This document shows, one piece after another, positions 3,593-45,500 of a DNA stretch of 64,000 bases (positions are counted from its first letter, which is position 1; the number at the start of each line of letters is the position of its first letter). The stretch comes from Dehalococcoidia bacterium (GTDB lineage Bacteria > Chloroflexota > Dehalococcoidia > Lucifugimonadales > UBA6952): NCBI GenBank assembly GCA_022450525.1, contig JAKUQA010000006.1, positions 912-64,911 on the forward strand, written 5' to 3'. The notes beneath the pieces were generated by a model. The model saw only the letters and a list, made by a program, of their open reading frames with translations. It searched no databases and was not told where the DNA came from. A program made the position numbers and the translations under genes.

Positions 3593-3601
3593 TTTATAAC
3601 C

Positions 3602-27854: not shown

Positions 27855-29645
27855 TTATTCAGTAAAGTTGAGATTATACAAATTCTGGTAAAATTCACTT
27901 GAATTCATTAGTTCTTCATGACTACCAGAAGCCAAAATTTTACCTTGATCCATAACAATTATTCTATCTGCGTTTCGTATTGTGGATAATCTATGAGCTA
28001 TTACAATTGAAGTACGATTATTTAGCAGAGTGTTTAAAGCTTTTTGTATTTTTATTTCTGTAAAGGTATCTACATTTGCAGTTGCTTCATCGAGTATCAG
28101 TATTTCTGGGTCTGCTAATAATACTCTCGCAAAACTAATTAACTGTCTTTGCCCTAAACTAAGATTCATGCCACGCTCGTGAAGAATTGTGTCGTATTGT
28201 TCACTCAATTCATTAATAAAATCATGTGCACCTGCAGCCTTGCTAGCTTTAATTATATCCTCTAAAGAAGCGTTATCATGATTGTATTTAATGTTCTCTG
28301 CGACAGTTAATGAATATAAGAAAGGTTCTTGAAGGACCATACCTAATCGTTGTCGTAAATATTCACGTGGTAGTTCCTTTAAATTTAATCCATCGATTAA
28401 GACTGTTCCTTCTGTTGGATCATAAAATCTAGCAGCTAGTGAAGCTATAGTTGTTTTTCCAGCTCCAGTTGGGCCTACTAAGGCGATCATTTCCCCTGAT
28501 TCTATACTTAAATCTAAATTTTTTAATGCATATCTATCTTTTGTATATTCCATAGTGACATTATCAAATTTCAACTTACTAGATTTTTCGATTTTACTAT
28601 TTGATTTGATCGATTCATTATAAATCACTTCAGGTTCTACACTAAGTAATTCGAATATTCGTACTGCTGATGTTGTAGTTCTTTGAAATTCTGTATATTG
28701 CATTGTTAGACTTCTAATAGGTTCAAAAAATCTTTGAACATAAAGTGTAAATGCAATCAATTCTCCCAATTGTAGTTCTTCTCCTAGAACCATGTTTCCA
28801 CCAATAATTATTACTAAACTCAAAGAAATAGCTGTAATAAATTCCACGGTTGGCATAAGTGCGGAAGATAGCCTGATTGCTTTGATATTAGCTTGTAAAT
28901 GATCATCATTTACTCCATCAAAAATTTTCGCATTTCTTTCTTCTCTATTAAAACTTTGTACTATTCGTACACCAGAAATATTTTGTTGGAGTCGTGAATT
29001 TACTACTGATATTGCCTGTCTAACTTTGACAAAGGCAGCTTTAGCTCTAGTTTGCCAAAGAGCAATTATAAATAAAAGAAAAGGAATTACGGTGAAACAA
29101 TACAAAGCTAATTTAACATTCATCAATAACATAACAATGGTTATGCCTACTACACTGAGCATATCCCCTAAAGTGAGAGCTAACATGGGGAAAAACTCTT
29201 GTAGTTGATTTACATCATTTTGTATTCTACTCATTATTCTTCCCACTTCGTTTTTATCAAAAAACGGTATGGATAGGTTTTGCAAATGATCAAACATTTT
29301 CATTCTTAGATTAAGGAGTACATGTTGTGAGGCCTGTGCTAATAACTTTAGGTAACTGACATTTGCAACATAATTTATTGTTACAACAATAAATAAAGCT
29401 ATGCCCCATTGATTTAAACTAGATTTATTTTGAGTAAGTATGAAGGCATCTGTGACGTATCCAATAATTCTAGGTAAAGCTACAATAGTGAGTGTATAAA
29501 ATGTCATCATTACCATAGCTAAAGTAAAGACAATTAATTTTCCTCTGAGAAAAGGGAACAGCTGTTTTGCTGCTCCAAAATCCCATACAGCACCTATTTC
29601 TTCTTCATTGAGAGTAGTCCATGCGGCAGTGCGTTTATTAAGCAT
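27855..29645 (-). CDS. ABC exporter, fused permease/ATPase half-transporter (MdlB/YheH-like)
   Basis: 596 aa. Six-TM exporter domain, Walker A GPTGAGKTT, signature LSLGQRQ, Walker B ILILDEATA. Confidence 0.9.
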   Translation of the reverse strand: MLNKRTAAWTTLNEEEIGAVWDFGAAKQLFPFLRGKLIVFTLAMVMMTFYTLTIVALPRIIGYVTDAFILTQNKSSLNQWGIALFIVVTINYVANVSYLKLLAQASQHVLLNLRMKMFDHLQNLSIPFFDKNEVGRIMSRIQNDVNQLQEFFPMLALTLGDMLSVVGITIVMLLMNVKLALYCFTVIPFLLFIIALWQTRAKAAFVKVRQAISVVNSRLQQNISGVRIVQSFNREERNAKIFDGVNDDHLQANIKAIRLSSALMPTVEFITAISLSLVIIIGGNMVLGEELQLGELIAFTLYVQRFFEPIRSLTMQYTEFQRTTTSAVRIFELLSVEPEVIYNESIKSNSKIEKSSKLKFDNVTMEYTKDRYALKNLDLSIESGEMIALVGPTGAGKTTIASLAARFYDPTEGTVLIDGLNLKELPREYLRQRLGMVLQEPFLYSLTVAENIKYNHDNASLEDIIKASKAAGAHDFINELSEQYDTILHERGMNLSLGQRQLISFARVLLADPEILILDEATANVDTFTEIKIQKALNTLLNNRTSIVIAHRLSTIRNADRIIVMDQGKILASGSHEELMNSSEFYQNLYNLNFTE

Positions 29646-31422
29646 GATTGGTATCTTCCTTCAATGAGACATTATTTTGTATTAGGGGTTGATCTGCTTG
29701 ATTTTCAGCAATTTGTAAATTATACAAATCTTTATATATACCTTCTTGTTGAATTAATTCTGTATGATTTCCTCTTTGTTCAATTAATCCATTATTTAAA
29801 ACAATGATATTATCGGCATTTTGTACTGAACTTATTCTGTGAGCAATGATAATTGTAGTTTTATCTTGGGAAATATTTTCCAATTGTGCTTGTATATATT
29901 TTTCTGTGATTGTATCAACACTTGATGTGGCATCGTCTATTATTAATATTGGTGGATCGATTAGTAATGCTCTGGCAATTGAAATTCTTTGTCTTTGTCC
30001 TCCTGATAAAGTGCTTCCTCTTTCACCAACGACGGTATCATATTTATGTGGTAAAGACATGACAAACTCATGAATCTGGGCGATTTTAGCAACTTTTTCA
30101 ATTTCTTCAATAGAAATATTAGGGTTACCATAGGCTATATTTTCCCTAATGCTATCAGTAAACAAGAAAACATCTTGGTGGATTAAGCCAATATTTTTTC
30201 GTAAATTTATTAATTCAAACTTATCTACTGAAATATTGTCTATAGTAACAAATCCATCGGTAGGTTCATAAAATCGTGGTATAAGGTTAATAATACTTGT
30301 TTTTCCGCTTCCTGGTGGGCCTATAATTCCTAGGGTTTCACCTGGTTTTATTCGGAAATCAATATTATGTAGAATATCTTTTCCAGATTCATGATAAAAC
30401 GAAACATTTTCAAATTTTATTTCACCTTTGATTTTTGTCGTAGAATCTGCATTATCATGGTTAAAAATTGATGGGTCACTATCTAATATTTCAAATATGC
30501 GTGTACCTGCAGATAGACCTCGAGAAAAAGAGTTAGTAACCCAGGCTGCTATTCTTACTGGCATAGCTAGCATACCAAGATATAATATAAATTGAGCAAG
30601 TTCACCAGCTGTCATATTTCCATCGACTACTTCTGTTCCCCCAACCCACAATATTAGTGCAGTACTTGCCATATAGAAAAATGTCATCATTCCAGCATTA
30701 TTTGCTTGTAGGGCAGCAGCTTCGTAGGCATGTTCCGCAACTTCACCAGTGCGGTTAAGAAAGCGTTTTTCTTCAAACTCTTCAGCACCAAACGCTTTTA
30801 CTACTTTTTGACCAGATAGGTTTTCTTGCAAGATAGTGGTCATATGTCCCATTGCTACTTGAACAAGGAACCATTTTTTCCTTTGGGCTAATATGAAAAT
30901 ACTACCGCGCCATATAATGAATGGTACAAATACTAAGCAATATAAGCTTAATTTCCAATCTAATAAAACAATTAAAATCATTACGCCCAAAATTAAACTT
31001 ATACAGAAGAAAGATCGTATCATTCCTCCTTGGACAAACATTCGAATTCCTTCAATATCAGATGTGGCTCGTGACATCAAATTTCCTGTTTGATGTTTGT
31101 CATGAAAATCGAAATTGAGGGTTTGTAAATGTGTATAAAATTCATTTCTCAGGTCATAAGCAACTTGTTGTCCCAGTGATTCACCAAAATAAGTTTGGCC
31201 ATAGGCCATAAGTCCTCTAAACAAGTTTGCTAATATTATTCCTCCGGCTAAGAGCCATAAGCCTTGGGCTGAACCAGAAGTGATTACAGCATCAATGGCT
31301 GTTCCGATAATTTTTGGGATCATTAAGCCAAAAACTGTTACACCTATTATGGAAAGATATGCTAATAGTAATCGACCTTTGTAAGGTGCTGTTCTTTTAG
31401 CTAATCTGATTAATACGTTCAT
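29638..31422 (-). CDS. ABC exporter, fused permease/ATPase half-transporter (MdlA/YheI-like)
   Basis: 594 aa. Walker A GPPGSGKTS, signature LSGGQRQR, Walker B ILIIDDATS. 8-nt overlap with the downstream partner implies a heterodimer. Confidence 0.9.
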   Translation of the reverse strand: MNVLIRLAKRTAPYKGRLLLAYLSIIGVTVFGLMIPKIIGTAIDAVITSGSAQGLWLLAGGIILANLFRGLMAYGQTYFGESLGQQVAYDLRNEFYTHLQTLNFDFHDKHQTGNLMSRATSDIEGIRMFVQGGMIRSFFCISLILGVMILIVLLDWKLSLYCLVFVPFIIWRGSIFILAQRKKWFLVQVAMGHMTTILQENLSGQKVVKAFGAEEFEEKRFLNRTGEVAEHAYEAAALQANNAGMMTFFYMASTALILWVGGTEVVDGNMTAGELAQFILYLGMLAMPVRIAAWVTNSFSRGLSAGTRIFEILDSDPSIFNHDNADSTTKIKGEIKFENVSFYHESGKDILHNIDFRIKPGETLGIIGPPGSGKTSIINLIPRFYEPTDGFVTIDNISVDKFELINLRKNIGLIHQDVFLFTDSIRENIAYGNPNISIEEIEKVAKIAQIHEFVMSLPHKYDTVVGERGSTLSGGQRQRISIARALLIDPPILIIDDATSSVDTITEKYIQAQLENISQDKTTIIIAHRISSVQNADNIIVLNNGLIEQRGNHTELIQQEGIYKDLYNLQIAENQADQPLIQNNVSLKEDTNHA

Positions 31423-31568
31423 AGAAGTTTTAACAAAAGGTAAAAAAATAAAAATTCTTCAGCTATTATTACTTAAATAGTGATAAAATGCCAACAATTC
31501 GTTTTTTTTCTTACGGTAATAATTAATAAAATGAATTATCTGATCAAATTTTATTACATTTTAGGGTT

Positions 31569-32210
31569 ATGAATTTTTCAGTACGATTAATGAATAATAA
31601 TGATATTTCTGAAGTCGCAATAATTGAGCGGCAAGCCTTTCCAACTATGTGGCCACCTATTCCTTTTAAAAGAGAACTTGGTAATAAGTTTGCTGAATAT
31701 TTTGTTATTGTTTGCAAATTAGATGAACACTTAGTTATTCCTGAACCTCAACCAAATACTTCTTTTCTACAAAAATCGGTAAATAAAATCCGTGGTTTAT
31801 TTTTTTCAGATAAATTTGATGCAAAGGATTCATTTATAGTTGGATATCTTGGGATATGGTATACATTAGATGAAGCGCATATAACTTCTATTGCAACTCG
31901 AGAAGAATTTAGAGGTATGGGTATAGGAGAAATGTTGTTAATTGCCGCCTTTCAAAGAGCTTTTCAAAGGAAATCAAATTCAGTGACATTGGAAGTACGA
32001 GTGTCGAATGAAATTGCACAAAACTTATATTCTAAATATGAAATGATAGAAGTGGGAAAAAGAAAGAGATATTACTCTGATAATCAAGAAGATGCATTAA
32101 TTATGACTGCCGATGATATAAATACTGATGATTTTTATCATCAAATTCAAATAAAAATCAAAAAATATTTGGATAAACATCAAAATATTACATTACTTGA
32201 TGACAAATAA
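31569..32210 (+). CDS. GNAT N-acetyltransferase, RimI-like, with internal insertion and C-terminal tail
   Basis: 213 aa. IERQAFPTMWP start, acetyl-CoA motif RGMGIGEMLL, YSKYEMIEVGKRKRYY end of core. About 40 extra residues sit between the early strands. Confidence 0.6.
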   Translation: MNFSVRLMNNNDISEVAIIERQAFPTMWPPIPFKRELGNKFAEYFVIVCKLDEHLVIPEPQPNTSFLQKSVNKIRGLFFSDKFDAKDSFIVGYLGIWYTLDEAHITSIATREEFRGMGIGEMLLIAAFQRAFQRKSNSVTLEVRVSNEIAQNLYSKYEMIEVGKRKRYYSDNQEDALIMTADDINTDDFYHQIQIKIKKYLDKHQNITLLDDK

Positions 32211-32296
32211 ATAAATATTGAAATCTACAATTGTATATATATAGATCTTTAGTATTGACATTAGATTCATGATCGGTTTTCATTTATTCGTGGTAT

Positions 32297-32410
32297 GGGA
32301 TTGATTGCAAGGGTATATTATCCGAAGGCATTAAATCTATTTCATATCAATAGGGTTTTTTAATCAAAGGCAAGGACCCTGCTCTGGGGTTACCGAAGGT
32401 CAGAAAGGAG
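32297..32410 (+). promoter_or_regulatory. Candidate glycine-riboswitch-like structured 5' leader (one full aptamer plus truncated second repeat)
   Basis: Hand-folded. P1 TTGATT(32301-06)/AATCAA(32362-67). Hairpin GGGTA-TAT-TATCC (32311-23) is followed directly by GAAGG (32324-28). Hairpin TCTATT-7nt-AATAGG (32336-54), then AGGCAAGGAC (32368-77). Next comes GCTCTGGGGTTACCGAAGGTCAGAAAGGAG, which repeats the CUCUGG / CCGAAGG / CAGxAAAGGA core motifs without peripheral hairpins. 32368-32410 is 25/43 G+C in a genome of about 33% GC. Confidence 0.4.
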
Positions 32411-32470
32411 TTAAGATGCCCAAAATAATTTTAATTACTTGTTTTAGATTGTCGATGAAAGGAGGAGAAT

Positions 32471-33682
32471 ATGTCTAGTAGGTATCCTAAAGTCACTTAT
32501 ACCGAGCAAGGTTTAAGAGAAGGTATGCAAATCGAAGATGCTAATATTGCTATCGATGATAAAATCGAACTGCTGAATGCATTAGGAGAAACTGGTTTAA
32601 AAAATATAGTTGTTGGATCTTTTGTGAGCCCTCGATATACTCCACAAATGGCGAGAATGGATGAATTAATGTCCAAATTTAAGCCTATTGAAGGTGTAAC
32701 ATACACTGCATTAGCTCTTAATGAAAGAGGAGTTGAGAGAGCCAAAGAATATTCACCACCTCTTACTATTGAACGAGGTTCAGGTCGACCTTCTCTAAGT
32801 TGTCATATGTGTGACGTATTTGTTAGAAGAAATACAAACAGATCACAAATGCAAGAGATGGAAAATTGGCCAAAAGTTATTGCTCGAGCAATAGAAGCAG
32901 GTGCAAAGGAAGCAGGTATAGGTGCTAATGCTTCATTTGGATCTAATTTCCTTGGAGACTTTTCTGTAGATCAATATATGGCCTTACTTGAGCATCAACA
33001 TGCTCTTTGGGAAGATGCAGGTATTAAGGTTACTCAAGTTAGTATGGGTGATCCTATGGGATGGGTTCATCCAGAAAAAGTAGAACAAATTATCTACCGT
33101 GTGAAAGAAAAATGGCCAGAAGCTACTCATTGGTCATTACATTCTCACAATAGTAGAGGAATGGCTGTAACTTCTCACTATGCAGCATTACGAGCCCTTG
33201 GTCCAGAAGATGATTTAGCTCTTGATGGAACAATTGGTGGTTTCGGTGGTTGCCCTTATTGTGGTAACGGAAGAGCCACAGGTATGGCTCCAACTGAAGA
33301 TACAATGCATATGATGGAAGATATGGGTATTGATACAGGAGTAGATTTAGATAAATTAATCGAGACTGTATGGATGGCTGAAGAAATACTAGGAAGACAG
33401 TTGTGGGGACATGTTTCAAGAGCTGGACCCAGACCTTCGAATGGTATTGATGGAAGAAATGTTAAGACCAAGGTATACGATATGAATGCTCCTTTCGTAG
33501 AGACATTGGAACAAACCAAACATTTCAAACTTGGTTCAAAGGCTTACGAAGGTGGAGTCTATCCATGGCGTGAACCTATTGCAAGTCCATATAAAGATAG
33601 GCTTGATAAAGGATTGCCAGTTTTTGAGGTAGATGGTGATTGGCCTTGGAAAGAAGATTGGTTCCCAAAACCATCAAATTAA
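32471..33682 (+). CDS. HMG-CoA-lyase-like (HMGL/pyruvate carboxyltransferase fold) acyl-CoA lyase with C-terminal extension
   Basis: 403 aa. GLREGMQIE (cf. RDGLQ), LHSHNSRG (HxH metal site) and GGFGGCPY motifs of HMGL-like lyases. About 100 extra C-terminal residues, rich in W/P/K. Confidence 0.72.
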   Translation: MSSRYPKVTYTEQGLREGMQIEDANIAIDDKIELLNALGETGLKNIVVGSFVSPRYTPQMARMDELMSKFKPIEGVTYTALALNERGVERAKEYSPPLTIERGSGRPSLSCHMCDVFVRRNTNRSQMQEMENWPKVIARAIEAGAKEAGIGANASFGSNFLGDFSVDQYMALLEHQHALWEDAGIKVTQVSMGDPMGWVHPEKVEQIIYRVKEKWPEATHWSLHSHNSRGMAVTSHYAALRALGPEDDLALDGTIGGFGGCPYCGNGRATGMAPTEDTMHMMEDMGIDTGVDLDKLIETVWMAEEILGRQLWGHVSRAGPRPSNGIDGRNVKTKVYDMNAPFVETLEQTKHFKLGSKAYEGGVYPWREPIASPYKDRLDKGLPVFEVDGDWPWKEDWFPKPSN

Positions 33683-33701
33683 TCGAATAGATTATAATTT
33701 G

Positions 33702-33744
33702 TAGAGCGAACTTCAATATTCTGAGGTTCGCTCTATAATTTTTA
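33702..33744 (+). terminator. Rho-independent terminator after the HMGL-like gene
   Basis: Perfect 10-bp stem TAGAGCGAAC(33702-11)/GTTCGCTCTA(33726-35). It is extendable to 14 bp through T.G, T-A, C-G and A-T pairs, and is followed by TAATTTTTA. Confidence 0.65.
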
Positions 33745-33762
33745 GGACATGAGGGAGGAGAT

Positions 33763-34953
33763 TTGTTACCTTTAAATGATGTATTAATATTAGAAATAGG
33801 TTCAAGTATATCTGGCTCATATTGTTGTAAAATTTTAGCTGATTATGGTGCTAATATTGTGAAGATAGAAACAATAGACGGTGATTCTATTAGAAACGAA
33901 GAGCCATTTATTACAGATTCTTCAAATGATGATCATAGTACTCTTTTTTTGAGTTTGAATACAGGGAAAAAAAGTATCTCAGTTGATTTTGATAATGAAA
34001 AATCGATAGACATTATTGTTCAACTAGCGCAAAAAGCAGATGTTATCATAGATGGTACTACACCAGGATTTCTTGAAACAAAAGGCTTAATCTTTTCAGA
34101 TTTATTAGAACGCAACCCTAGTCTAGTAATTACTTCAATAACACCATATGGTCAAAGTGGTCCAAATAGTAATTGGGAGTGGTCCCAAATAAGCTTGGAA
34201 GCTTTTGGTGGCAATATGTATGTTAGTGGTGATTATGATGGGGAACCTATGTCATTTGGTGTTCCATTATTTCAATATGTGGCAGGCCAGGTAGCATTAA
34301 GTTCAACAATGATGGCACTTTTATGTGCTGATCGTATTGGAGGCCAATATATTGATGTAAGTATTGCTGAAGTAGTTACTTCATGTATACCCTATGCTTT
34401 ACAATATTATACCTATACAGGAGCTGTTTGGGGTCGTGGGCCTAAAGATCGATTGTTATTTGGTGTAGACTTATGGCCAGCTAGTAATGGCCATGTAGGT
34501 CTTTCAGTAATTCGGAGTACAGATTTCGAAGAAATTGCAGCATTTTTAGGTGTTCCTGAAATGTACGAAGAAAAATTTTCAACACCACAAGGTCGGGAAG
34601 AAAATTATGAAGAGCTAAAATCTTTATATTTGAATCGACTGCAAGAAATAGATAAAGATGATTTTTTTCATGAAGCTCATGCTTGGCGCCTGATGGCTAG
34701 TAGAGAATTAAATCCCAAAGAGTTATTACAGTGTGAACAATTAATTGAAAGAAATTATTTCACTAATATTGATCATGGAACATTATCAGGATTGCCTCAT
34801 GTTTCAAATGTATTAGGTTTAAATACAACTAAAGGTATACCTACAGAAGGTTCTCCATCGCTTGGTCAGCATTCAGAATATATTTTATCAACTATTCTTA
34901 ATTTCGAATCTGATGTTATTCGAGATATGAAAGATAAAGGGGTGATTAAATAA
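33763..34953 (+). CDS. Family III CoA-transferase, paralog 3
   Basis: 396 aa. VLILEIGSSISGSYCCKILADYGANIVKIE N-terminus. TTG start behind a GGGAGGAG SD. Confidence 0.78.
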   Translation: MLPLNDVLILEIGSSISGSYCCKILADYGANIVKIETIDGDSIRNEEPFITDSSNDDHSTLFLSLNTGKKSISVDFDNEKSIDIIVQLAQKADVIIDGTTPGFLETKGLIFSDLLERNPSLVITSITPYGQSGPNSNWEWSQISLEAFGGNMYVSGDYDGEPMSFGVPLFQYVAGQVALSSTMMALLCADRIGGQYIDVSIAEVVTSCIPYALQYYTYTGAVWGRGPKDRLLFGVDLWPASNGHVGLSVIRSTDFEEIAAFLGVPEMYEEKFSTPQGREENYEELKSLYLNRLQEIDKDDFFHEAHAWRLMASRELNPKELLQCEQLIERNYFTNIDHGTLSGLPHVSNVLGLNTTKGIPTEGSPSLGQHSEYILSTILNFESDVIRDMKDKGVIK

Positions 34954-34955
34954 CA

Positions 34956-36338
34956 ATGAATGATAAACTACTACCGTTACAGGGTGTAAGAATAATAGAA
35001 ACATCAGACATACTGGCTTTGCCAATGGCAATGAGTATACTAGGTGATATGGGTGCTGAAATAATTCATGTGGAATATGCACAAAGACCGAACTTTTATA
35101 GGTTTTTAGGTCCTTTCCCTGAAGGAGATCCTGGTATAAATTGGCATGATCGTTCAGGCGCTTTTAATGGATCAAATAGAAGTAAGAAAAGTTTTACCTT
35201 AAACTTGTCAGAAGATAGTGGACGTGATTTGTTCAAACATTTGGTATCTATCTCAGATATTGTGGCAGAAAACTTTTCTGCTAGAGTTATGACAAATTTA
35301 GGTCTAAATTATGAACAATTAAAAGAGATAAAGCCTGATTTAATTATGCTTTCTAATTCTGGATATGGACACACTGGGCCTTGGAAAGATTATGTAGGAA
35401 TGGCACAAGTGATAGAGGCAGCAACTACTTCACATCTTACTGGATTTTCTGATAAAACTCCGAGTAAAGCGGGACAGTCAATTATGGATCTAGTTGTTGC
35501 ATGGAATATAGTAAGTGCAATCAATATGGCTTTATTTCATCGAAATAAAACGGGAGAAGGTCAATGGATTGATCATTCAATGCTTGAAGCTTGCACCCCC
35601 ATAATTAGCTCTCCATTGCTAGATGTTGCATACAATGATAAGTATATTCAAAGGAATGGGAATCGTCATAATACCTATGCTCCGCAAGGTTGTTATCCGT
35701 GCAAGGGTAATGATGATTGGTTTGTTTTAACTATTAAATCAGATGATGAGTGGGGGAAATTTTGTGATTTAGTGAATGATGAAAGTTTATCAGCAAATAA
35801 GTATCCAAAGAATATTGATCGCATGACGAATCATGAAGAAATTGATAATCAAATTAAAAACTGGAGTCAAAATTTATCTAAACAAGAAGTTGTTGAAAAA
35901 CTGCAATCTATAAATATTGCAGCTGCCCCTGTTAATAATTCAAGAGATTTATTACTTGATAAACAATATAAACATCGAGAATTCTTCGAACAGGTAGATC
36001 ATTTCGAAGAAACTAATATAGGTAAACGTATATATTCTGGTCTACCATTTAATATGAGTAAAACAAATGGATTTATTCAAAATCCCACTGCTCCTCTTGG
36101 GTTTCATAATACCTATGTATTATCGGAATTATTGGGGCTCGATGAAGATAATATTCTAGATCTTGAAGACGATGAAGTAGTATCTGAATATAAAAGTGGT
36201 ACGGAAGTACAGGATATGCGTGTTGGAAACATGCCTGCTGGTTATAAACCAGCTTCTCCTTCAAATCAATCACTTATCGATAGAGGAGATGTGAGAGAAG
36301 ATGATACAAATTATAAAAATATTATTGAAGAGTTTTGA
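34956..36338 (+). CDS. Family III CoA-transferase, paralog 4 (with acidic C-terminal tail)
   Basis: 460 aa. LQGVRIIETSDILALPMAMSILGDMGAEIIHVE N-terminus and IMDLVVAWN Asp region. Starts 2 nt after paralog 3. Confidence 0.78.
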   Translation: MNDKLLPLQGVRIIETSDILALPMAMSILGDMGAEIIHVEYAQRPNFYRFLGPFPEGDPGINWHDRSGAFNGSNRSKKSFTLNLSEDSGRDLFKHLVSISDIVAENFSARVMTNLGLNYEQLKEIKPDLIMLSNSGYGHTGPWKDYVGMAQVIEAATTSHLTGFSDKTPSKAGQSIMDLVVAWNIVSAINMALFHRNKTGEGQWIDHSMLEACTPIISSPLLDVAYNDKYIQRNGNRHNTYAPQGCYPCKGNDDWFVLTIKSDDEWGKFCDLVNDESLSANKYPKNIDRMTNHEEIDNQIKNWSQNLSKQEVVEKLQSINIAAAPVNNSRDLLLDKQYKHREFFEQVDHFEETNIGKRIYSGLPFNMSKTNGFIQNPTAPLGFHNTYVLSELLGLDEDNILDLEDDEVVSEYKSGTEVQDMRVGNMPAGYKPASPSNQSLIDRGDVREDDTNYKNIIEEF

Positions 36339-36355
36339 TAAAATAGTGATAAATT

Positions 36356-38560
36356 GTGAATGATCAAATTTTTTCTGGACTTAATCCTGAACAACAGGAT
36401 GCTGTTAATACAACAGATGGGCCTTTATTGGTTTTAGCAGGTCCAGGTAGCGGTAAAACACGAGTTATAACCCATCGTATTTCTCATTTAATTAGTGAAG
36501 TGTCTATTAAATCACAAAATATTTTGGCGGTAACCTTTACCAATCGTGCTGCTAATGAAATCAAAGAACGTATAAATAATATGGTTATGAGCAGAGATGC
36601 TTTTAATATTCGATGTGGAACATTTCATAGCCTTTGCGTTTATATATTGAGGCAACACGCGAACTTTATTGGGTTGAATCAAAATTTTGTTATTTATGAT
36701 GATAGTGATCAATTACAGGTTATAACAGAATCATTAAAGGAATTACAGATTGATAATAAAAGATTTCCTCCTCGAGCCTTATTAGCTTCAATATCAAAAC
36801 ATAAAAGTAATTTAATCCCTTATGAAATTTTGAGTGGGGCAAGTCAGAACTTTTATGATGAAATCGTATCTAGAGTATATGAAACTTATCAAAAAACTTT
36901 AAATTCTAATAGTGCTTTGGATTTTGATGACCTTTTAATGAAGGCAGTTCAATTATTACAAAATTCGAAAGAAACACATGACTACTATAGTAATAAATAT
37001 GAACATCTGATGATTGATGAATTTCAAGATACTAATATAGCTCAATACACTTTAATGAAATTATTAGGCAATAAGTATGAAAATATATGTGTGGTGGGCG
37101 ATCCAAATCAATCAATTTATTCATGGAGAAATGCAGATATTAGAAATATATTATCTTTTCAAAAAGATTATCCAAATGCAAAGGTTATTCATCTTTCTCA
37201 AAATTATCGATCTACCCAAAATATATTAGATGCAGCTTCTAAGCTTATATCTTCCAATGATACAAATATTAACAATAAACTATGGACTAATAATGGTACT
37301 GGTGAATCTCTGATTATAGATGAAGGATATTCAGAAAAAGAAGAAGCTGAAAAAATTATTCATGAAATACAACGTTTGGTAAAGATAAAAAAATACAAAT
37401 GGGATGAATGTGCAATTATGTATAGAGTAAATGCGCAATCACGCGTAATTGAAGAAGCCTGTCTTTCGAATAAAATCCCATATAAAATTATAGGTGGTAT
37501 TAAATTCTATAGCAGAAAAGAAATAAGGGATGTGATTTCTTATCTAAAGGTTATAGCAAATCCGGATGATGATATTAGTATTGCTAGAATAATGAATGTT
37601 CCTCCAAGAGGAATTGGTGCTACTAGTTACAATAAATTAGTCGATTTCGCTAAAAATAATAATAAGACCATCTATAAGACATTGTGTACATTTAATAGTT
37701 CAGAAGAATTACAACAATCAGTTGGATTAACACGACGTGCTGCTATAGCTATAGATGGTTTTTCTAATTTGTTAAAAAACATTATTGCTGAGTCATTAGA
37801 TACAAAACCTTCTGAAATCATTCAAAAAATTATAACTGATGTGGGCTATCAATCATATTTACAACAGGATGAGACAAATGGTCTTGATCGTTTAGAAAAC
37901 GTAATGGAGTTAAAAGGCCTAGCATTACAATTACATGAGACTGAAGAAATAACATCAATGACAGATTATTTAGATAGAATAGCTTTAGTTAGTGATGTAG
38001 ACGGATTAGATAGAAATGAAAATTCTATAACTTTAATTACTTTACATCAATCGAAAGGACTAGAATTCCCAGTTGTTTTTATAGCAGGTATGGAGGAAGG
38101 ATTATTACCTCACATAAGAAGTATGGAGGATCCAGTACAGTTAGAAGAAGAGAGGAGACTTTGTTATGTTGGGATTACACGTGCAGAAAAATTATTATAT
38201 TTATTGAGAACATATAAAAGATATGGTTTTGGTCAAGGAAGTCAAACTAGTATACCATCACGTTTTCTTTCAGATATTTCAGATGTAAGTATACAAAGTT
38301 TAGAAAAAAATAATCCTAATTCACGTAAAGACATAACGACGCTAAAAACAAATATTAATAATAGCCAACAGGAAATTCAGTTATTAGATCCTATGGAAAT
38401 TGGAACAAAAGTCATTCACAAAACTTTTGGAGAAGGTATTGTTTTGTTATGTACTGAAAGTGGAAATGATTTTGTGATTGATGTTCATTTTAGCTCTGCA
38501 GGCAAAAAGAAATTATTGATGAGTTTGGCTAACCTAGAAATAGTTGAGAAATCAAAATAA
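36356..38560 (+). CDS. pcrA: ATP-dependent DNA helicase PcrA/UvrD (superfamily 1A)
   Basis: 734 aa. LNPEQQDAV, Walker A AGPGSGKT, DEFQDTN, VGDPNQSIYSWRNA, LSQNYRS, TLHQSKGLEFPVVF, VGITRAEKLLYL motifs. GTG start. Confidence 0.92.
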   Translation: MNDQIFSGLNPEQQDAVNTTDGPLLVLAGPGSGKTRVITHRISHLISEVSIKSQNILAVTFTNRAANEIKERINNMVMSRDAFNIRCGTFHSLCVYILRQHANFIGLNQNFVIYDDSDQLQVITESLKELQIDNKRFPPRALLASISKHKSNLIPYEILSGASQNFYDEIVSRVYETYQKTLNSNSALDFDDLLMKAVQLLQNSKETHDYYSNKYEHLMIDEFQDTNIAQYTLMKLLGNKYENICVVGDPNQSIYSWRNADIRNILSFQKDYPNAKVIHLSQNYRSTQNILDAASKLISSNDTNINNKLWTNNGTGESLIIDEGYSEKEEAEKIIHEIQRLVKIKKYKWDECAIMYRVNAQSRVIEEACLSNKIPYKIIGGIKFYSRKEIRDVISYLKVIANPDDDISIARIMNVPPRGIGATSYNKLVDFAKNNNKTIYKTLCTFNSSEELQQSVGLTRRAAIAIDGFSNLLKNIIAESLDTKPSEIIQKIITDVGYQSYLQQDETNGLDRLENVMELKGLALQLHETEEITSMTDYLDRIALVSDVDGLDRNENSITLITLHQSKGLEFPVVFIAGMEEGLLPHIRSMEDPVQLEEERRLCYVGITRAEKLLYLLRTYKRYGFGQGSQTSIPSRFLSDISDVSIQSLEKNNPNSRKDITTLKTNINNSQQEIQLLDPMEIGTKVIHKTFGEGIVLLCTESGNDFVIDVHFSSAGKKKLLMSLANLEIVEKSK

Positions 38561-38566
38561 TTTTGT

Positions 38567-38595
38567 TTGACAAAAATTTGAATATACCATAAAAT
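38567..38595 (+). promoter_or_regulatory. Sigma-70-type promoter candidate for rpoBC
   Basis: TTGACA (38567-72), a 17-nt spacer, then TAAAAT (38590-95), immediately after the pcrA stop. Confidence 0.5.
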
Positions 38596-38676
38596 AGGAG
38601 TTTATATTTTATAAAACAGGCTTATCATATCATATATAAGTTTCCAAAATAACTGGGATATCCCATTTTCTTTTTG

Positions 38677-38700
38677 CCATTCCTCATGGAATGGTATTTT
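38677..38700 (+). terminator. Terminator-like hairpin in the rpoB leader (possible attenuator)
   Basis: CCATTCC(38677-83)-TCAT-GGAATGG(38688-94) followed by TATTTTTT. It lies between the promoter candidate and the rpoB SD. Confidence 0.4.
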
Positions 38701-38727
38701 TTACATTCAATAAGGAGTGTGTTTCAT

Positions 38728-41700
38728 ATGGTTGCTATTGAACCTTCTGCCAATATTAAGCGTATTGAAAATAGTTTTGCTTCTAGCACCTTAGAGGCTA
38801 GTGTGCCCAATTTAATTCAGGTATTAAGTCAATCCTTTGAATCATTTAAAACTGAAGGAATGACTGAATTATTAAATGAAATTTCCCCGATTGAAGACTT
38901 CAATAACACTCGTTATGAGTTAAATTTCGTTGGTCACGAGTTTCGCGAACCTAAATATAGTGAATCAGAATGTAGAGAATTAGAAAAAACTTATGCTTCA
39001 GCCCTATATGTTACTGCGCAATTGAAAATTAAGCAGACCGGAGAAATCAAAGAGAATCAAATATTTCTTGCTGATATACCATTTATGACAACTAATGGGA
39101 CATTTATTATTAACGGTGCTGAACGCGTTGTAGTGAGTCAGCTTGTAAGATCCCCAGGGGTATATTTTACCGTTGAAGAAGATCCTGTTACAGGAAGAAA
39201 AATGGGAAATGCAAAATTTGTTCCATATCGTGGTGCATGGTTGGAATTTGAAACAAGTTCAAGGGATATCATATCTGTAAAAGTAGATAGAAAAAGAAGA
39301 ATACCTGTAACCACTTTTTTGCGAGCTATTGGTTTTGATTCTCCTCAAGCTATTTTAGATGAATTTAAATCTTTTGATACAGATACAGATCACACATACA
39401 TCAAAACAACTCTTGATCGTGATCCTAATGCGATTGAGAGAAAAGATGCCTTAATTGAATTATATCGACATATAAGACCAGGGGAACCCCCAACTTTGGA
39501 AAACTCTGAGGCTATGTTGCATAATTTATTTTTTAATCCAAGAAGATATGACTTAGGTAGGGTTGGAAGATATAAAGTAAACAAGCGTTTAGGCAGTGAT
39601 TATAATATTGAAGATAAAACCCTGACAAAGTCGGATATTATTGCAGTGGTTAAGAAAATTCTAGATATTAATAATGGTCGTGAAACTCCAGATGATATTG
39701 ATCATTTGGGTAATAGGAGAGTTCGAGCTGTTGGTGAATTAATTCAAAATCAGTTACGTGTTGGTCTCGTTAGAATGGAACGTGTTGTTAAAGAACGTAT
39801 GACGATTAATGATCCAGAAACTACTACACCTTCATCATTAATTAACCAACGACCAGTTGGTGCTGCAGTAAGAGAATTTTTTGGAGGATCTCAATTATCA
39901 CAATTTATGGATCAAACGAATCCTTTAGCAGAGTTGACTCATAAGAGAAGACTTTCAGCGTTAGGTCCTGGCGGGTTATCAAGAGAAAGAGCAGGGTTTG
40001 ATGTCAGAGACGTGCATCATTCTCATTACGGCAGAATATGCCCTATTGAAACTCCTGAAGGACCAAATATTGGTTTGTTGGGTTCTCTAGCAACTTATGC
40101 CCGAACTAATGAATTCGGTTTTATTGAGACTCCTTATAGAACAGTTGTTCATGAATTACAATCTCATGATGGTGAATTGATTGGGAGAACAATTAACGAA
40201 CCTGTCAGGGACGATCAAGGTAAAACTATAATTCGAAAGGGTTCTGTAGTTACAAATAGAACTTTTGCTAAATTAAGTTCATTACCTGAAATGAACATAA
40301 AGGTACAGGCTTATGTTACGGATAAACCTGAACATATACATTATCTCTCTGCAGACGATGAAGAAAAGTTCGTAATTGCTCAGGCAAATGCCGTTCTTGA
40401 TGAAAAAGGACAAATTTCAAGTGAAAAAATTGAAGTCCGAAGAGGTGAGGATTTCGCAATTGAAAGTCCTGATCAGATTGATTATATGGATATTTCTCCA
40501 AAGCAAATTGTTAGTGTTTCAACTGCCTTGATACCTTTCTTAGAGCATGATGACGCCAATAGAGCGTTGATGGGTTCAAATATGCAGAGACAAGCAGTTC
40601 CATTGCTGAGACCAGATGCACCAATTGTTAGTACCGGTATGGAAAGAAGAGTTGCGATTGACTCAGGTCAAGTAGTAATTTCTGATGTAGATGGTGAAGT
40701 TACAGTATGTGGAAGTGATTATATAGCCATACGAGATAACCAAGGTAAGGACTATGAATATCAATTAAGAAAATTCTTTAGGACAAATCAAGGCACTTGT
40801 ATGAATCAAAGACCTATTGTTTTTAAAGGCGATAAAGTTTATGCAGGTCAACCAATAGCAGATTCTTCATCTACTGATGGTGGAAGACTCGCCTTAGGAC
40901 AAAATGTTTTAGTCGCATTTATGAGCTGGGAAGGGTATAACTTCGAGGATGCAATAATTGTAAGTGAAAGATTACTCCAAGAAGATAAATTTACTTCTAT
41001 TCATATTGAAAAGCACGAATGTGAAGCTAGAGATACTAAAATTGGTCCAGAAGAAATTACAAGAGATATACCAAATGTAGGAGAAGAAAGTCTTCGGAAT
41101 TTAGATGAGGACGGGATAATTATGCCCGGAGCAGAAGTTGGCCCTGGCGATATATTAGTTGGTAAAATTACACCAAAAGGTGAAACAGATCTAAGTGCAG
41201 AAGAGAAACTGCTAAGAGCTATTTTTGGAGAAAAAGCCCGAGATGTTAAAGACTCTTCTTTACGAGTTCCCCATGGTGAAAGAGGTAAGGTCACAAAGGT
41301 TAGTATATTCAGTAGAGACAATGGTGATGACTTACCAGCTGGAGCTAATAAATTAGTAAGGGTTTGGATTGCTCAGACAAGAAAAATTTCTGTAGGAGAT
41401 AAAATGGCTGGTCGTCATGGTAATAAAGGGGTTATTTCCAGAATTATGCCTGTCGAAGATATGCCATATACCGCCGATGGTACTCCAGTTGATATAATTT
41501 TGAATCCATTAGGTGTTCCATCTAGAATGAACCTTGGTCAGGTTTTAGAAACCCATTTGGGTATGGGGGCGAAGGGAATGAATTTTGATGCAGTAACACC
41601 TGTATTTGATGGCGCAAGTGATGTCGGAATTCAGGATACATTAGCAAAATCTTGGTTTGTTACTGAATCAGGTTGTATACAAAAACACGGATCTATAGAT

Positions 41701-42504
41701 CTTGATTTATTAAGAGACTGGTTATCTGAAAGAGGATATAACTATGAAGATATTTATCGAGAAGATATAGTAGGATTAGCCACTGAAGCTTGTCATCGTA
41801 TCTGGCTAAATAGTCGTAATATACCTACTGAAGGTTTGTCCAGAGAAGACTTGAACGACAAAATTAGAGATTTGAATGCCAAGCATGATGATGTTCCACC
41901 TACTTTTGGAAAAACCAAACTCTACGATGGAAGAACAGGTGAAGCATTTGATATGCCAGTGACTGTAGGTTGCGTATATATGCTTAAACTCATTCACTTA
42001 GTTGAAGACAAGATACATGCTAGATCTACAGGCCCATATTCGTTGATAACACAACAACCTCTTGGAGGTAAGGCTCAATTTGGAGGCCAAAGATTCGGAG
42101 AAATGGAAGTTTGGGCTCTGGAAGCCTATAGCTCAGCTCATAATTTACAAGAAATGTTAACAGTTAAATCTGATGATGTATTAGGTCGAGTAAAAACATA
42201 TGAATCTATTATTAAAGGTGAGGATATAGTACAACCTGGAATTCCAGAATCATTCAATGTTCTTTTGAAAGAATTACAAAGTTTGGGTCTGTCAGTTGAA
42301 TTACTGCGAGAAGCAGACCAACCTTTCGGACTATTAAATGAATATGATGAAGCAGCCTTACTTGATATGGATATAGAAACCGATCAAATTATTCCAAGTT
42401 TTGAGGATGATGATATTGCATCTAATTTGGATACTGCTGGCAATTTGGCAAATTTGAAAGATCGAGATTTTATTGATTCTGTAGATGTTGAAGAAGAACT
42501 TTAG
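38728..42504 (+). CDS. rpoB: DNA-directed RNA polymerase subunit beta
   Basis: Start set at ATG 38728, behind AAGGAG (38712-17). The track ORF begins 54 nt earlier at TTG. Conserved blocks: [84 protein letters not shown]. Confidence 0.97.
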
Positions 42505-42563
42505 ATATCGGCAAATTTAGTATCAATTTGCATATATAAATACACAAAGAGGTAGAAAAAAGG

Positions 42564-45500
42564 ATGACAACTGAAACTCCTGAATTTAATGCGGTAAAGA
42601 TAGGTATAGCATCTCCAGAACAAATTTTGAACTGGTCTTATGGAGAAGTAACCAAACCTGAAACAATAAACTACAGGACTTTGCGTCCAGAAAAAGACGG
42701 CTTGTTCTGCGAAAAAATATTCGGTCCAACTAAAGACTGGGAATGTTATTGTGGTAAGTATAAAAAATTACGTTATAAAGGCGTAATTTGTGATCGTTGT
42801 GGAGTTGAAGTTACACGAAGTAAAGTTCGTAGAGAAAGAATGGGCCATATAAAATTAGCAGCACCAGTTGCTCATATATGGTTCGCCAAAGGGTCTCCCA
42901 CACGCTTAGGTTTATTGTTAGATATATCACCAAGAAATTTAGAAAGAGTTTTATATTTTGCTCAATATATTATTACATCAATAGATCAAGAATCTTTAGA
43001 TTTATTGTTAAGTGATATGCGTGAACAGGAAGAACAAATAGAGCAAAATAGTATGGAGGCAATTCTTGCTGCGGTAAATAATTATATTGATCATAATAAA
43101 TTAGAATATGGTGTATTTGATCAATCAAATATCGCAAAATTACTTGCCGTTTCAGAATCAGACGATGATAAAGAGTTGGTTAAAATTTCTCAAATCGCAA
43201 CGGAAATTAAAGCAAGTTTTGAAACTTCTTTAGCACAAATTAAAATCAAAATAGACGACATTGAGCAAGTAGCACTTATGCAGCTTCTTACAGAAAATCG
43301 ATATCGTGAACTTAGAGATTCACTAGGAGATAGGTTTACTGCTGCCATGGGGGCAGGTTCAATCATGGAAATTTTAGAAGGTATTGATCTAGATGTTCTC
43401 AGAGATGAACTAGCTGAAGAAATAAAAGTAACAGCAGGACAGAGACGTAAAAAGGCTGTTAAAAGACTAAGAATTGTTGAATCATTTCGTCGTAGTGGAA
43501 ATCGTTCAGAGTGGATGATAATGACTGTTTTACCAGTACTACCTCCAGATCTACGACCAATGGTACAACTTGATGGTGGCCGTTTTGCTACTAGTGATTT
43601 AAATGACCTGTATAGAAGAGTAATAAATCGAAATAATAGATTAAGAAGATTATTAGAACTTGAAGCTCCGGAAATTATTGTTCGTAATGAAAAAAGAATG
43701 TTACAGGAAGCCGTAGATGCTTTAATTGATAATGGTCGACATGGAAGAGCTATTGCTGGTAGTCATAATCACAAATTAAAATCATTATCAGATTTGTTAA
43801 GAGGAAAACAGGGACGGTTTAGACAAAACTTACTTGGAAAGAGAGTAGATTACAGTGGAAGATCTGTAATTGTTGTTGGCCCTGAATTAAATATGCATCA
43901 GTGCGGCTTACCAAAAAAAATGGCATTAGAATTATTTAAACCTTTTGTGATGAATCGATTGGTTATGGAAGGCCATGCACATAATGTGAAAAGTGCAAAA
44001 AGAATGGTAGAAAATGGTAGAGAAGAAGTTTGGGATATTTTAGAAGAAGTAATCTCGGGTAGACCTGTTCTTCTTAATAGAGCTCCTACATTACATAGAT
44101 TAGGTATTCAAGCTTTTCAGCCAGTATTAGTAGAAGGAAGTGCAATTAGGTTGCATCCGTTAGTTTGTACGGCTTTTAATGCCGATTTTGATGGAGACCA
44201 AATGGCTGTACATGTACCATTATCAGAAGAAGCGGTTAGAGAAGCTAGCGAAATTATGCTTAGTACTCACAATATGTTACGACCAAGTTCTGGAGAACCA
44301 ATTGTATCACCAACCTTAGATATAGTACTCGGTTGCTATTACCTCACACATTTCGAAGATGATACAGAACATACAAATAATAAATATTTGAGTCCAGAGA
44401 GTGCTAGGCAGGCATATGATGCAGGTTTAATTGAGTTACATGATTTGATATCGATTAAAGTAGAAGATGAATGGATTGATACGACTGCTGGGAGAATAAT
44501 ATTTAATGAAATTCTTCCAGAAGAATTATCCTTCAGGAATGTTGTAATGAATTCAGACAATTTAGGAGAATTGATTAACGAATGTTATGCAGAGTTAGGA
44601 AACCTAAAAACAGCTGAGATATTGGATTCAATTAAAAAAATTGGATTTGGTTATGCCACAAAATCTGGTACTACAATTTCAATAAATGACATTACAATTT
44701 CACCTAAAAAACAGGCTTTGATAAATCAAGCAACTGAAGATGTTGATGAAATTGAAGAAGAATATCTAAATGGGTTGTTAAGCGATGAAGAACGCTACCA
44801 ACGATCAATAGCTATATGGACAAAAACTAGCGATGATATGACAGGTGTAATAAGAGAATCTTTACCTGGCTATGGTGGAGTTTATATGATGGCAAATTCT
44901 GGTGCTAAAGGTAACTTGGCCCAAATTAAACAAATGGCAGGTATGCGTGGTTTAATGAGTAATCCTCGTGGAAGGATTATTGAATTACCAATTAAATCAA
45001 GTTTCCGTGAAGGTCTTTCTGTGCTGGAATATTTTATTTCAACACATGGTGCTCGAAAAGGATTGACAGATACAGCTTTGAGAACAGCTGATAGTGGATA
45101 TTTAACTAGAAGGCTTATTGATATTTCCCAAGATGTCATTATATTGCATGAAGAATGTGATGCTACAGAAGGTTATTGGATTGAAGATGAGCCTGATAAT
45201 CCATTACGTCCTCCTTTTGAGTATAGAATTACTGGAAGAGTTGTATCTGAAAAAGTAACTCATCCAGATACTGGAGAAATTTTAGCTGATGAGTTAGTTA
45301 CTATCGATAGATTAATGGCAAAGTCAATTCTTGAATCCGGGGTAAAACGGGTTCAGGTACACTCTCCTTTAACTTGTACTTGTTGGCGTGGTATATGTCG
45401 AATGTGTTATGGACAAAGTCTAGCTACGGGTCAAACTCCACTTATTGGTGAATCAATAGGAATTATTGCTGCCCAAAGTATTGGGGAACCAGGAACACAG

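Follow-up and report, generated by a model that had tools for sequence, protein, structure and literature searches.

A conserved leader of bulged-hairpin units upstream of an HMG-CoA-lyase-like gene in Dehalococcoidia, an orphan riboswitch candidate

Introduction

What kind of RNA, if any, lies in the intergenic region upstream of a hydroxymethylglutaryl-CoA-lyase-like (HMGL-like) gene of a marine Dehalococcoidia bacterium? The gene (32471-33682, + strand) is part of a 64,000-nt stretch of DNA (GenBank assembly GCA_022450525.1, contig JAKUQA010000006.1, positions 912 to 64,911), hereafter the window, which has a G+C content of 33%. A gap of 260 nt separates it from a rimI-like GNAT gene (31569-32210). 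As noted in an earlier prediction made from the sequence of the window, a patch within this gap (32368-32410) is G+C-rich, with 25 G or C residues in 43 nt. The whole intergenic region has 84 in 260; at least 25 G+C is reached in just 0.1% of 43-nt segments across the 64 kb. The original prediction read the region as a glycine riboswitch, with a three-way aptamer followed by a second half reminiscent of a ghost aptamer. A structured, conserved, G+C-rich cis leader with two related halves is indeed present, as attested by 25 loci and by covarying units; the glycine-aptamer identity is not upheld, as no Rfam family matches and the fold is a different one.

The leader is conserved and belongs to the HMGL-like gene

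Genomes and metagenomes were scanned with the protein as guide; together with contig look-ups for homologues of 72-82% identity, this yielded 171 loci. The leader element is present in 25 of these, in each case directly 5' of an HMGL-like gene that leads its transcription unit. The carriers comprise six AT-rich marine variants (the window, L001, L083, L084, L086 and L092, together the marine clade) and about 15 distinct GC-rich groundwater, soil and sediment Chloroflexota, so that carrier genomes within the Dehalococcoidia/Chloroflexota range from 33% to about 60% G+C, a gap of roughly 27 points. L001, a marine Dehalococcoidia metagenome-assembled genome with 98% protein identity, is nearly the same as the window. 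No element was found upstream of operon-internal HMGL-like orthologues (for example L169, where the gene follows a PrpD/MmgE gene), nor in L171, where the gene stands behind a gap of only 54 nt. The genes 3' of the HMGL-like gene differ among carriers (CoA-transferase, serS, helicase, transposase, Fe-S protein), and the upstream rimI-like GNAT gene is missing in L164 and L166. Since the neighbors change on both sides while the leader stays, the element belongs to the HMGL-like gene. Its conservation exceeds chance, as judged by sequence comparison, and the element is a genuine leader, folded in the mRNA.

In L166-L168 there are two tandem HMGL-like paralogues (genes 1076-2275 and 2501-3715). 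The leader stands 5' of the first only; the second follows a gap of about 225 nt that holds no unit.

The repeating unit is a bulged hairpin with a strictly conserved internal region

RNAalifold, applied de novo to 17 sequences of the 3' repeat (unit 2), predicted a unit consisting of a short basal stem P1 (GGC/GYC), an internal loop with AA on the 5' side and GAAG on the 3' side, a GG/CC step, a bulged A opposite a 3-nt bulge (GNN), and a terminal hairpin P2. The elements of unit 2 in the window are as follows.

32369-32401, + strand: unit 2, the universal core, delimited by RNAalifold, pair counts and the covariance model R1
32369-32371 with 32399-32401, + strand: P1 of unit 2 (GGC with GUC), only 3 bp
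32372-32373 opposite 32395-32398, + strand: internal loop of unit 2 (AA versus GAAG)
32374-32375 with 32393-32394, + strand: GG/CC step of unit 2
32376 opposite 32390-32392, + strand: bulges of unit 2 (A versus UUA)
32377-32381 with 32385-32389, + strand: P2 of unit 2 (CCCUG with UGGGG), loop CUC

Helix P2 changes its sequence yet keeps its pairing among the carriers (UCCCGAC/GUCGGGA, UUCCAAC/GUUGGAA, CCCCGGC/GCCGGGG, CCC/GGG). Over the 17 unit-2 sequences, 96.8% of alignment cells are paired, as against at most 61% with slid partners, and the covariation score was matched by none of 500 shuffles. When both units are pooled, the 34 aligned copies give 97.2% of cells paired, with double-sided changes in 7 of 12 pairs (28 cells) that were equalled by 0-2 of 500 shuffles; this alignment was fitted to the model and so somewhat favors the structure. 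The helices contain frequent G-U pairs, which place the structure on the + strand RNA, that is, on the strand of the gene. While the helices drift, about 14 unpaired nucleotides per unit are near-invariant across very divergent genomes, with AAGGA and GNNCCGAAG as the conserved strands. Of the features that the original prediction built on, only the hairpin GGGTA/TATCC and the words CCGAAGG and GGCAAGGA hold across relatives. By itself CCGAAGG is not rare, with 3 copies in the window versus 2.0 expected. Coding potential of the leader was considered and ruled out, given that unit lengths (35-54 nt) differ by non-multiples of three and that the changes are compensatory.

The covariance model R1, trained on unit 2 sequences only, finds every unit 2 copy in the 25 carriers at 34-61 bits, the window copy scoring 47.3 bits. 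As a specificity control, 80 viral-contig sequences that hold both conserved words but not the hairpin scored 16-28 bits (at most 27.7). When viral contigs were scanned by pattern for copies in other gene settings, only chance matches came up, all at or below 27.7 bits, and a weak match in L071 (19 bits) lies at the level of these chance matches. R1 also recovers unit 1 copies on which it had not been trained, in L133, L143 and L136 (E 2.5e-6 to 5.6e-5) and less strongly in L087, L002, L088, L160, L162 and L166; the unit 1 core of the window scores weakly, at 8.7 bits. Because a model of unit 2 alone detects these untrained copies, the leader is a tandem of two homologous units.

In L136 (1735-1776 versus 1829-1869), and likewise in L133 and L143, the two units have almost the same P2 hairpin (UCCCGAC-NNN-GUCGGGA), a likeness not seen in other lineages. 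It points to a recent duplication or gene conversion between the units, or to a partner common to both.

Unit 1 and the architecture of the whole leader

Unit 1 is carried on long outer stems, P0 and the outer part of P1, and its domain spans 32291-32349 on the + strand. The parts of this domain, the linker that follows it and a conserved word near the 5' end of the leader are located as follows.

32261-32268, + strand: conserved 5' word UUAGAUUC, also found in leaders L133, L143, L135, L085 and L164
32291-32301 with 32339-32349, + strand: P0 of the unit 1 domain, an 11-bp outer stem; the unconstrained minimum free energy (MFE) architecture is the same in all six marine variants
32303-32305 with 32335-32337, + strand: outer P1 of unit 1
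32306-32308 with 32328-32330, + strand: core of unit 1 P1 (UGC with GCA)
32309-32310 opposite 32324-32327, + strand: internal loop of unit 1 (AA versus GAAG)
32311-32312 with 32322-32323, + strand: GG/CC step of unit 1
32313-32315 with 32319-32321, + strand: P2 of unit 1 (GUA with UAU), loop UAU
32350-32368, + strand: linker with conserved GGGUUUUUU (32353-32361), invariant in the marine clade

In the six-variant alignment of the marine clade, the full structure has 96.5% of cells paired versus at most 55% with slid partners. Five pairs are double-changed, four of them in the outer stem (P0/outer P1), and none in the slid controls; the pair count covers just six sequences, one of which was the source of the structure. 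GC-rich homologues of unit 1 have P0 and P1 together with an equal core. In an anchored alignment of GC-rich leaders, P0-P1-unit 1 comes first; a hairpin in the middle, P3 (GGUGAGCC...GGCUCACC), and then about 25 nt of unpaired linker separate it from unit 2, after which comes a Shine-Dalgarno (SD) sequence. The window leader lacks P3. The basal stem of unit 1 is CAGGCAG-GGC / GCC-CGCCUG in most GC-rich leaders and UUUGUAGC / GUUACAAG in L085/L164, and the outer P0 occurs as GGCCU/AGGCC, GGCCUU/AAGGCC, CGUCUC/GAGGCG or GUCU/GGAC. Taken together, L085/L164, L163 and the marine clade lend the outer stems of unit 1 moderate support.

The linkers of GC-rich leaders hold a G-run and a pyrimidine-run equivalent to those of GGGUUUUUU. 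A conserved linker motif of the form GGG-N-U(U/C)CGG is seen in GC-rich leaders (for example L160 5880-5895, L163 5915-5930 and L002 2925-2940); it complements the CCGAAG unit core over 6 bp in L160, 5 bp in L163 and 4 bp in most, which is short, and could act as an anti-aptamer strand. The word UUAGAUUC is common to AT-rich and GC-rich leaders; a pairing partner for it was sought and none was established. The sequence AAAUCU(A) lies 3' of unit 1 in the window and within the unit-1 hairpin loop in L002, L003 and L089.

Carriers without a unit 1 core have different sequences in its place. L135 retains the basal stem as a perfect CAGGCAGG/CCUGCCUG hairpin (2380-2400), L161/L165 carry an unrelated hairpin 5' of unit 2, and L004/L170 have unit 2 alone; these losses are independent.

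Comparison with known RNA families

Zero matches to Rfam 15, RF00504 (glycine riboswitch) included, were found at the gathering score in the whole window. Four leaders were also searched at E<=10, that of the window and the orthologous ones of L002, L003 and L133, from genomes of about 60% G+C; neither RF00504 nor any other Rfam 15 family matched. Every word quoted in the original prediction is in place: TTGATT at 32301-32306 and AATCAA at 32362-32367, GGGTA-TAT-TATCC at 32311-32323 followed by GAAGG at 32324-32328, TCTATT...AATAGG at 32336-32354, AGGCAAGGAC at 32368-32377 and GCTCTGGGGTTACCGAAGGTCAGAAAGGAG at 32381-32410. Orthologous leaders are conserved and covary, but not in the helices that had been built from these words. 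The proposed P1 (TTGATT/AATCAA) and second hairpin (TCTATT/AATAGG) have 76.6% of cells paired in the six marine variants, a figure equalled by 155 of 500 shuffles. The central pairs of that P1 are broken in three of the six sequences, and the long, covarying outer stem of unit 1 has its 3' strand where the 3' arm of the second hairpin had been placed. What had been taken for a CUCUGG core belongs to the variable unit 2 P2, of which it forms the loop and 3' arm; it occurs in the window only and is replaced by unrelated sequence in the relatives. In place of a three-way glycine architecture, the comparative structure is a two-way bulged hairpin, twice. As there is no Rfam match and the proposed helices are not conserved, the glycine assignment fails and the leader is not a glycine riboswitch. 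Short words common to the core of a famous riboswitch had sufficed to prompt a wrong family assignment, which is a caution for readings of this kind.

There are resemblances to glycine riboswitches at the level of layout. Glycine aptamers have a 5' junction element CUCUGGAGAG and junction strands GCCGAAGG and CAGGCAAAAGGAC. Like RF00504, the leader presents two related tandem domains in a 5' leader before one expression region, and the short words GCCGAAGG and GGCAA(AA)GGAC are common to both. The leader differs in that its units are bulged hairpins, with no three-way junction supported by covariation; in that the conserved words stand in another order relative to the helices; in that it has no GGAGAG/CUCUGG element and no P3 arm; and in that it precedes a gene for an HMGL-like lyase instead of gcvT or a transporter gene. 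A junction element of the CUCUGGAGAG type is not conserved in the leader, while CCGAAGG and GGCAAGGA are conserved in another structural setting. The long basal stem of the first domain and the short one of the second recall tandem glycine riboswitches, in which the first P1 is stable and the second is weak (PMC5066625).

The second half had been likened to the ghost aptamer of singlet glycine riboswitches, a P1-like stem that keeps no conserved aptamer element (PMC5066625). Unit 2 is the best conserved and universal part of the leader and carries all the core words; a search of Rfam 15 finds no canonical glycine aptamer that such a ghost could accompany, and this candidate was rejected.

By architecture the closest known RNA is the NAD+-I class (nadA motif), which is made up of tandem bulged stem-loops with the ribosome-binding site (RBS) in the second domain (PMC7297122, PMC7708056), where it lies within a regulatory helix (PMC7708056). 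Both have two homologous tandem bulged hairpins with the RBS tied to domain 2 (here an SD 5-6 nt after unit 2), and both have a narrow distribution and a single gene type. They differ in the conserved sequence (ACANCCCC bulge there, AAGGA / GNNCCGAAG here), in host and gene (nadA of Acidobacteria there, the HMGL-like gene of Dehalococcoidia here, with no Rfam match) and in the position of the SD, which in the leader is just outside the short P1 and not inside. By short words and by having a stable first and a weak second P1, the closest is the tandem glycine riboswitch. By defining sequence and by model, the leader belongs to neither class.

Two kinds of protein-binding element were also compared. 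In a kink-turn a 3-nt bulge is followed by tandem sheared G-A/A-G pairs, with an invariant A at position 1n. An L7Ae-type kink-turn reading of the unit (GGC-AAG-GA...G(N)-GCC) was rejected, the required A being A, U or C in carriers (GAG, GUG, GCG, GUA, GAA). The ThrRS operator and multi-site CsrA leaders are protein-binding mRNA operators with duplicated hairpins. With these the leader has in common repeated similar hairpins or GGA-type purine motifs, the last of them at or adjoining the SD, where repression is by occlusion; its conserved bases, however, are in the internal loop, and its hairpin loops are unconserved. There are five AAGG(A) motifs in the leader, the SD included, and those of the units lie in the internal loop rather than in hairpin loops, where CsrA-type leaders present their GGA motifs.

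Searches of the literature did not link HMG-CoA lyase to any riboswitch, and nothing on the HMGL-like gene or on a similar RNA motif was found in work on SAR202 and riboswitches. Nothing in the 26- and 50-genome surveys of non-coding RNA matches the leader. By Rfam 15 and the literature searched, the best reading is of a previously undescribed structured cis-regulatory leader that would act on the initiation of translation, as an orphan riboswitch candidate or as a site for a protein.

The expression platform

The conserved sequence continues beyond unit 2 into a purine tail, AGAAAGGAG, that contains an SD. This tail is invariant in the marine clade and nearly invariant over all carriers, and the 3' strand of unit 2 P1 ends 5-6 nt before the SD, a spacing fixed in all carriers. 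In the GC-rich relatives this SD serves the HMGL-like gene itself, which begins with ATGCCCGGAAAATAC. In the marine clade a short upstream open reading frame (uORF) intervenes. The features of this region in the window are listed below, with a possible promoter element.

32255-32260, + strand: TTGACA, a possible -35 box, present in all six marine variants; the marine -10 box is unclear
32353-32356 and 32358-32364 with 32410-32416 and 32418-32421, + strand: proposed helix P0' enclosing unit 2 (32353-32421), covering the last SD base and the upstream AUG
32402-32410, + strand: AGAAAGGAG, conserved purine tail with Shine-Dalgarno 1 (GGAG 32407-32410), directly 3' of unit 2
32416-32478, + strand: uORF of 20 codons (MPKIILITCFRLSMKGGEYV*), beginning ATGCCCAAAATA with AUG at 32416; its stop (32476-32478) overlaps the main start at 32471
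32458-32467, + strand: AAAGGAGGAG, Shine-Dalgarno 2, a strong SD for the main reading frame, read from the sequence and conserved in the marine clade

The uORF is open in six of six marine variants, at 20-21 codons, and the middle of its peptide is poorly conserved. Its first codons, ATGCCCAAAATA, match the start ATGCCCGGAAAATAC of the HMGL-like gene in GC-rich relatives. We infer that the RBS and start region was partially duplicated in the marine clade, and that the ancestral regulated AUG may now be that of a uORF translationally coupled to the gene.

A helix that could link unit 2 to ribosome access is P0', which pairs GGGU-UUUUAAU (32353-32364) with GUUAAGA-GCCC (32410-32421). Compared with shuffled flanks, its duplex energy has z-scores of -2.9 to -5.6 in each of the six marine variants, and an equivalent helix over SD and AUG exists in L002. 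In the RNAalifold consensus the linker and the SD are unpaired, and no conserved, mutually exclusive alternative structure was seen. An alternative marine-clade hairpin, in which the body of the uORF pairs with the 3' half of unit 2 and which appears in the MFE fold with a z-score of only -1.38, was rejected: the uORF body varies freely in L084 and its partner is invariant. An intrinsic-terminator attenuator was likewise rejected, no + strand terminator being called in the leaders of the window, L133 and L085; the U-run at 32356-32361 begins 6 nt after a weak outer stem.

The GC-rich relatives have a TTGAC(A/T)-N16-TA(T/A)GGT promoter about 20-30 nt 5' of the leader, which a promoter scan calls in L085 at 10/12. 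The same kind of scan called none on the + strand of the window, where the TTGACA at 32255-32260 may represent the -35 box.

A proposed mechanism and its alternatives

The drifting helices, the roughly 14 near-invariant unpaired nucleotides per unit, the stable first domain, the weak 3-bp P1 of unit 2 and the fixed distance of 5-6 nt to the SD together suggest a sensor RNA that acts on translation initiation. We therefore propose, tentatively and at somewhat less than an even chance, that the leader is an undescribed structured RNA of the 5'-untranslated region (5'-UTR), controlling in cis how the HMGL-like gene is translated, and a candidate orphan riboswitch. A metabolite-binding riboswitch would be the most likely reading of it, although its probability, too, falls a little below one half. 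Here the conserved internal region (5' AAGGA / 3' GNN-CC-GAAG) would form a binding pocket, most likely for a small metabolite of the pathway of the enzyme. An occupied pocket would stabilize the weak unit 2 P1, as well as the flanking helix over SD and AUG in leaders that have one, so that ribosome access would be reduced and the element would act as an OFF switch. Unit 1, on its long and presumably pre-formed stem, might serve as a scaffold or as a second sensor. In the marine clade the regulated start would be that of the 20-codon uORF, and control would be passed to the gene by translational coupling. Conservation, RNA structure on the strand of the gene, tandem homology, adjacency to the SD at a fixed distance and the lack of Rfam membership are observed in the carriers; ligand binding, the direction of switching and coupling belong to the proposal. 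A more specific version, in which this is a new riboswitch class with a compact, usually tandem bulged-hairpin aptamer limited to Dehalococcoidia (SAR202-type and groundwater Chloroflexota), sensing a small organic acid or acyl-CoA-pathway metabolite and gating translation of a divergent HMG-CoA-lyase-family enzyme, is possible but commands rather less confidence.

Several results weigh against a metabolite-sensing switch of this form. Although P0' is 100% paired in the marine clade, its changes are one-sided, with no compensatory change; helices over SD and AUG have a mean z-score of -1.4, with many values near 0, and few GC-rich leaders match the marine clade in having a strong one. In ensemble models with unit 2 forced or forbidden, the accessibility of SD and AUG was not consistently changed. 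The GG/CC step is invariant over the 34 units, its pairing being inferred from complementarity. When unit-1 P0/P1 flanks were swapped among GC-rich lineages, the exchanged pairs were not significantly worse than the cognate ones (19 of 120 permutations). The unit 1 core is lost in L004/L170, L135 and L161/L165 and unit 2 is universal in carriers, so the tandem is not essential. The enzyme is of uncertain function and the ligand cannot be deduced from it, and two similar hairpins are equally typical of sites for a dimeric protein.

This last point leads to the foremost alternative, that the tandem bulged hairpins are sites for an RNA-binding protein, perhaps a dimer or the encoded enzyme as its own repressor, that blocks initiation beside the SD. 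We regard it as less probable than a riboswitch, yet as a serious contender. Such a protein would suit the pair of homologous units beside an SD, in which the internal region is strictly kept and the hairpins vary. The five AAGG/AAGGA purine motifs recall the multi-site targets of CsrA- or ThrRS-type regulators, L136 and its relatives have almost the same P2 in both units, and modeling finds no switch in secondary structure. No candidate protein is linked to the leader, however, the upstream rimI-like GNAT gene being absent in L164 and L166; the kink-turn reading fails at the position that must be A; and the single-unit leaders of L004/L170 keep the element. The unpaired SD of the consensus, the lack of a conserved, mutually exclusive structure and the dispensability of unit 1 in some lineages would also suit a structural element that senses nothing, such as a 5' stabilizer, an RNase processing site or a ribosome standby structure that sets a constitutive level. 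We consider this unlikely: some 14 near-invariant unpaired nucleotides per unit amid drifting helices point to a specific binding surface rather than to generic stability, and the spacing to the SD is fixed.

Two further explanations have very little probability. One is a divergent, minimized or permuted glycine riboswitch that senses glycine or a close analogue. The stable first and weak second P1 are as in glycine tandems (PMC5066625), and GCCGAAGG after the hairpin and AGGCAAGGAC are similar to the strands GCCGAAGG and CAGGCAAAAGGAC at the junction of the glycine aptamer, a similarity that is a lead and not a test. Against these stand the lack of an RF00504 match at either threshold, the two-way fold of each unit, the failure of the proposed P1 and second hairpin, the unconserved CUCUGG, and a neighborhood (GNAT, ABC exporters, CoA-transferases, helicase) with no glycine-metabolism gene near the leader. 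The other, which we rank last, is a DNA-level operator whose inverted repeats are bound by a transcription factor. The element does lie between promoter and gene and contains inverted repeats, but its arms vary while staying complementary, its many G-U pairs would be A-C mismatches on the other strand, its loops range from 3 to 20 nt, and its conserved bases are unpaired and asymmetric.

SAR202-type Dehalococcoidia are abundant in the dark ocean, and a role in breaking down recalcitrant organic matter is attributed to their large, poorly understood paralogous families, HMGL-like lyases and CaiB-type CoA-transferases among them. Such an enzyme with a conserved, sensor-like RNA of its own offers an experimental handle in unculturable organisms, as whatever binds the RNA would point to the substrate pathway; if the leader does represent a new riboswitch class, it could help to assign a substrate pathway to one of the many unassigned paralogous enzyme families of this deep-ocean lineage. 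For RNA biology, it provides a compact tandem bulged-hairpin motif matched by no Rfam 15 family, and an expression platform that appears to have been rewired by duplication of the start region, the ancestral start having become that of a coupled uORF.

Genomic setting of the HMGL-like gene

The controlled gene and the genes that follow it are as listed; 3' of the two CoA-transferase genes lie a PcrA/UvrD helicase gene and rpoB.

32471-33682, + strand: HMGL-like gene (DRE-TIM lyase/synthase family), the controlled gene; Pfam PF00682, 85.5 bits
33763-36338, + strand: two family III (CaiB-type) CoA-transferase genes; Pfam PF02515

The HMGL-like protein, of 403 residues, scores 165 bits against the NCBIfam HMG-CoA lyase subfamily, below the cutoff of 246 bits; its best relative in the PDB is the HMG-CoA lyase of B. 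subtilis (1ydo, E 1.5e-35), and it has a C-terminal extension of about 100 residues that has no Pfam match. Its gene bears conflicting names, 'citramalate synthase' at NCBI and 'hydroxymethylglutaryl-CoA lyase' at JGI. The R-citramalyl-CoA lyase of Chloroflexus is a member of the same family. Frequent neighbors of the gene encode CaiB-type CoA-transferases, PrpD/MmgE proteins and MaoC-like hydratases, which suggests a branched or dicarboxylic acyl-CoA pathway. The two CoA-transferase genes are probably co-transcribed in the window genome; CoA-transferases are also found 3' of the gene in some carriers (L161, L165) and are absent in L160, L162, L163, L164 and L170.

The leader is part of a longer syntenic block (27855-46673 in the window) that runs from two divergent ABC exporters through the rimI-like GNAT gene, the leader, the HMGL-like gene and, where present, the CoA-transferases to the PcrA/UvrD helicase and rpoB/rpoC. 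It is partly retained in distant Dehalococcoidia (L160-L165, L170).

A subclade of HMGL-like genes with about 71-78% identity (L091, L093, L154, L157, L158 and partly L138) has another conserved upstream sequence (...GGGTTATGATAGGCGCGAGTGCTATGGCATCGGAGAAGGAGA...), located at about -75 to -1 of the gene and unrelated to the tandem-unit leader. It may comprise a promoter and a short conserved 5'-UTR.

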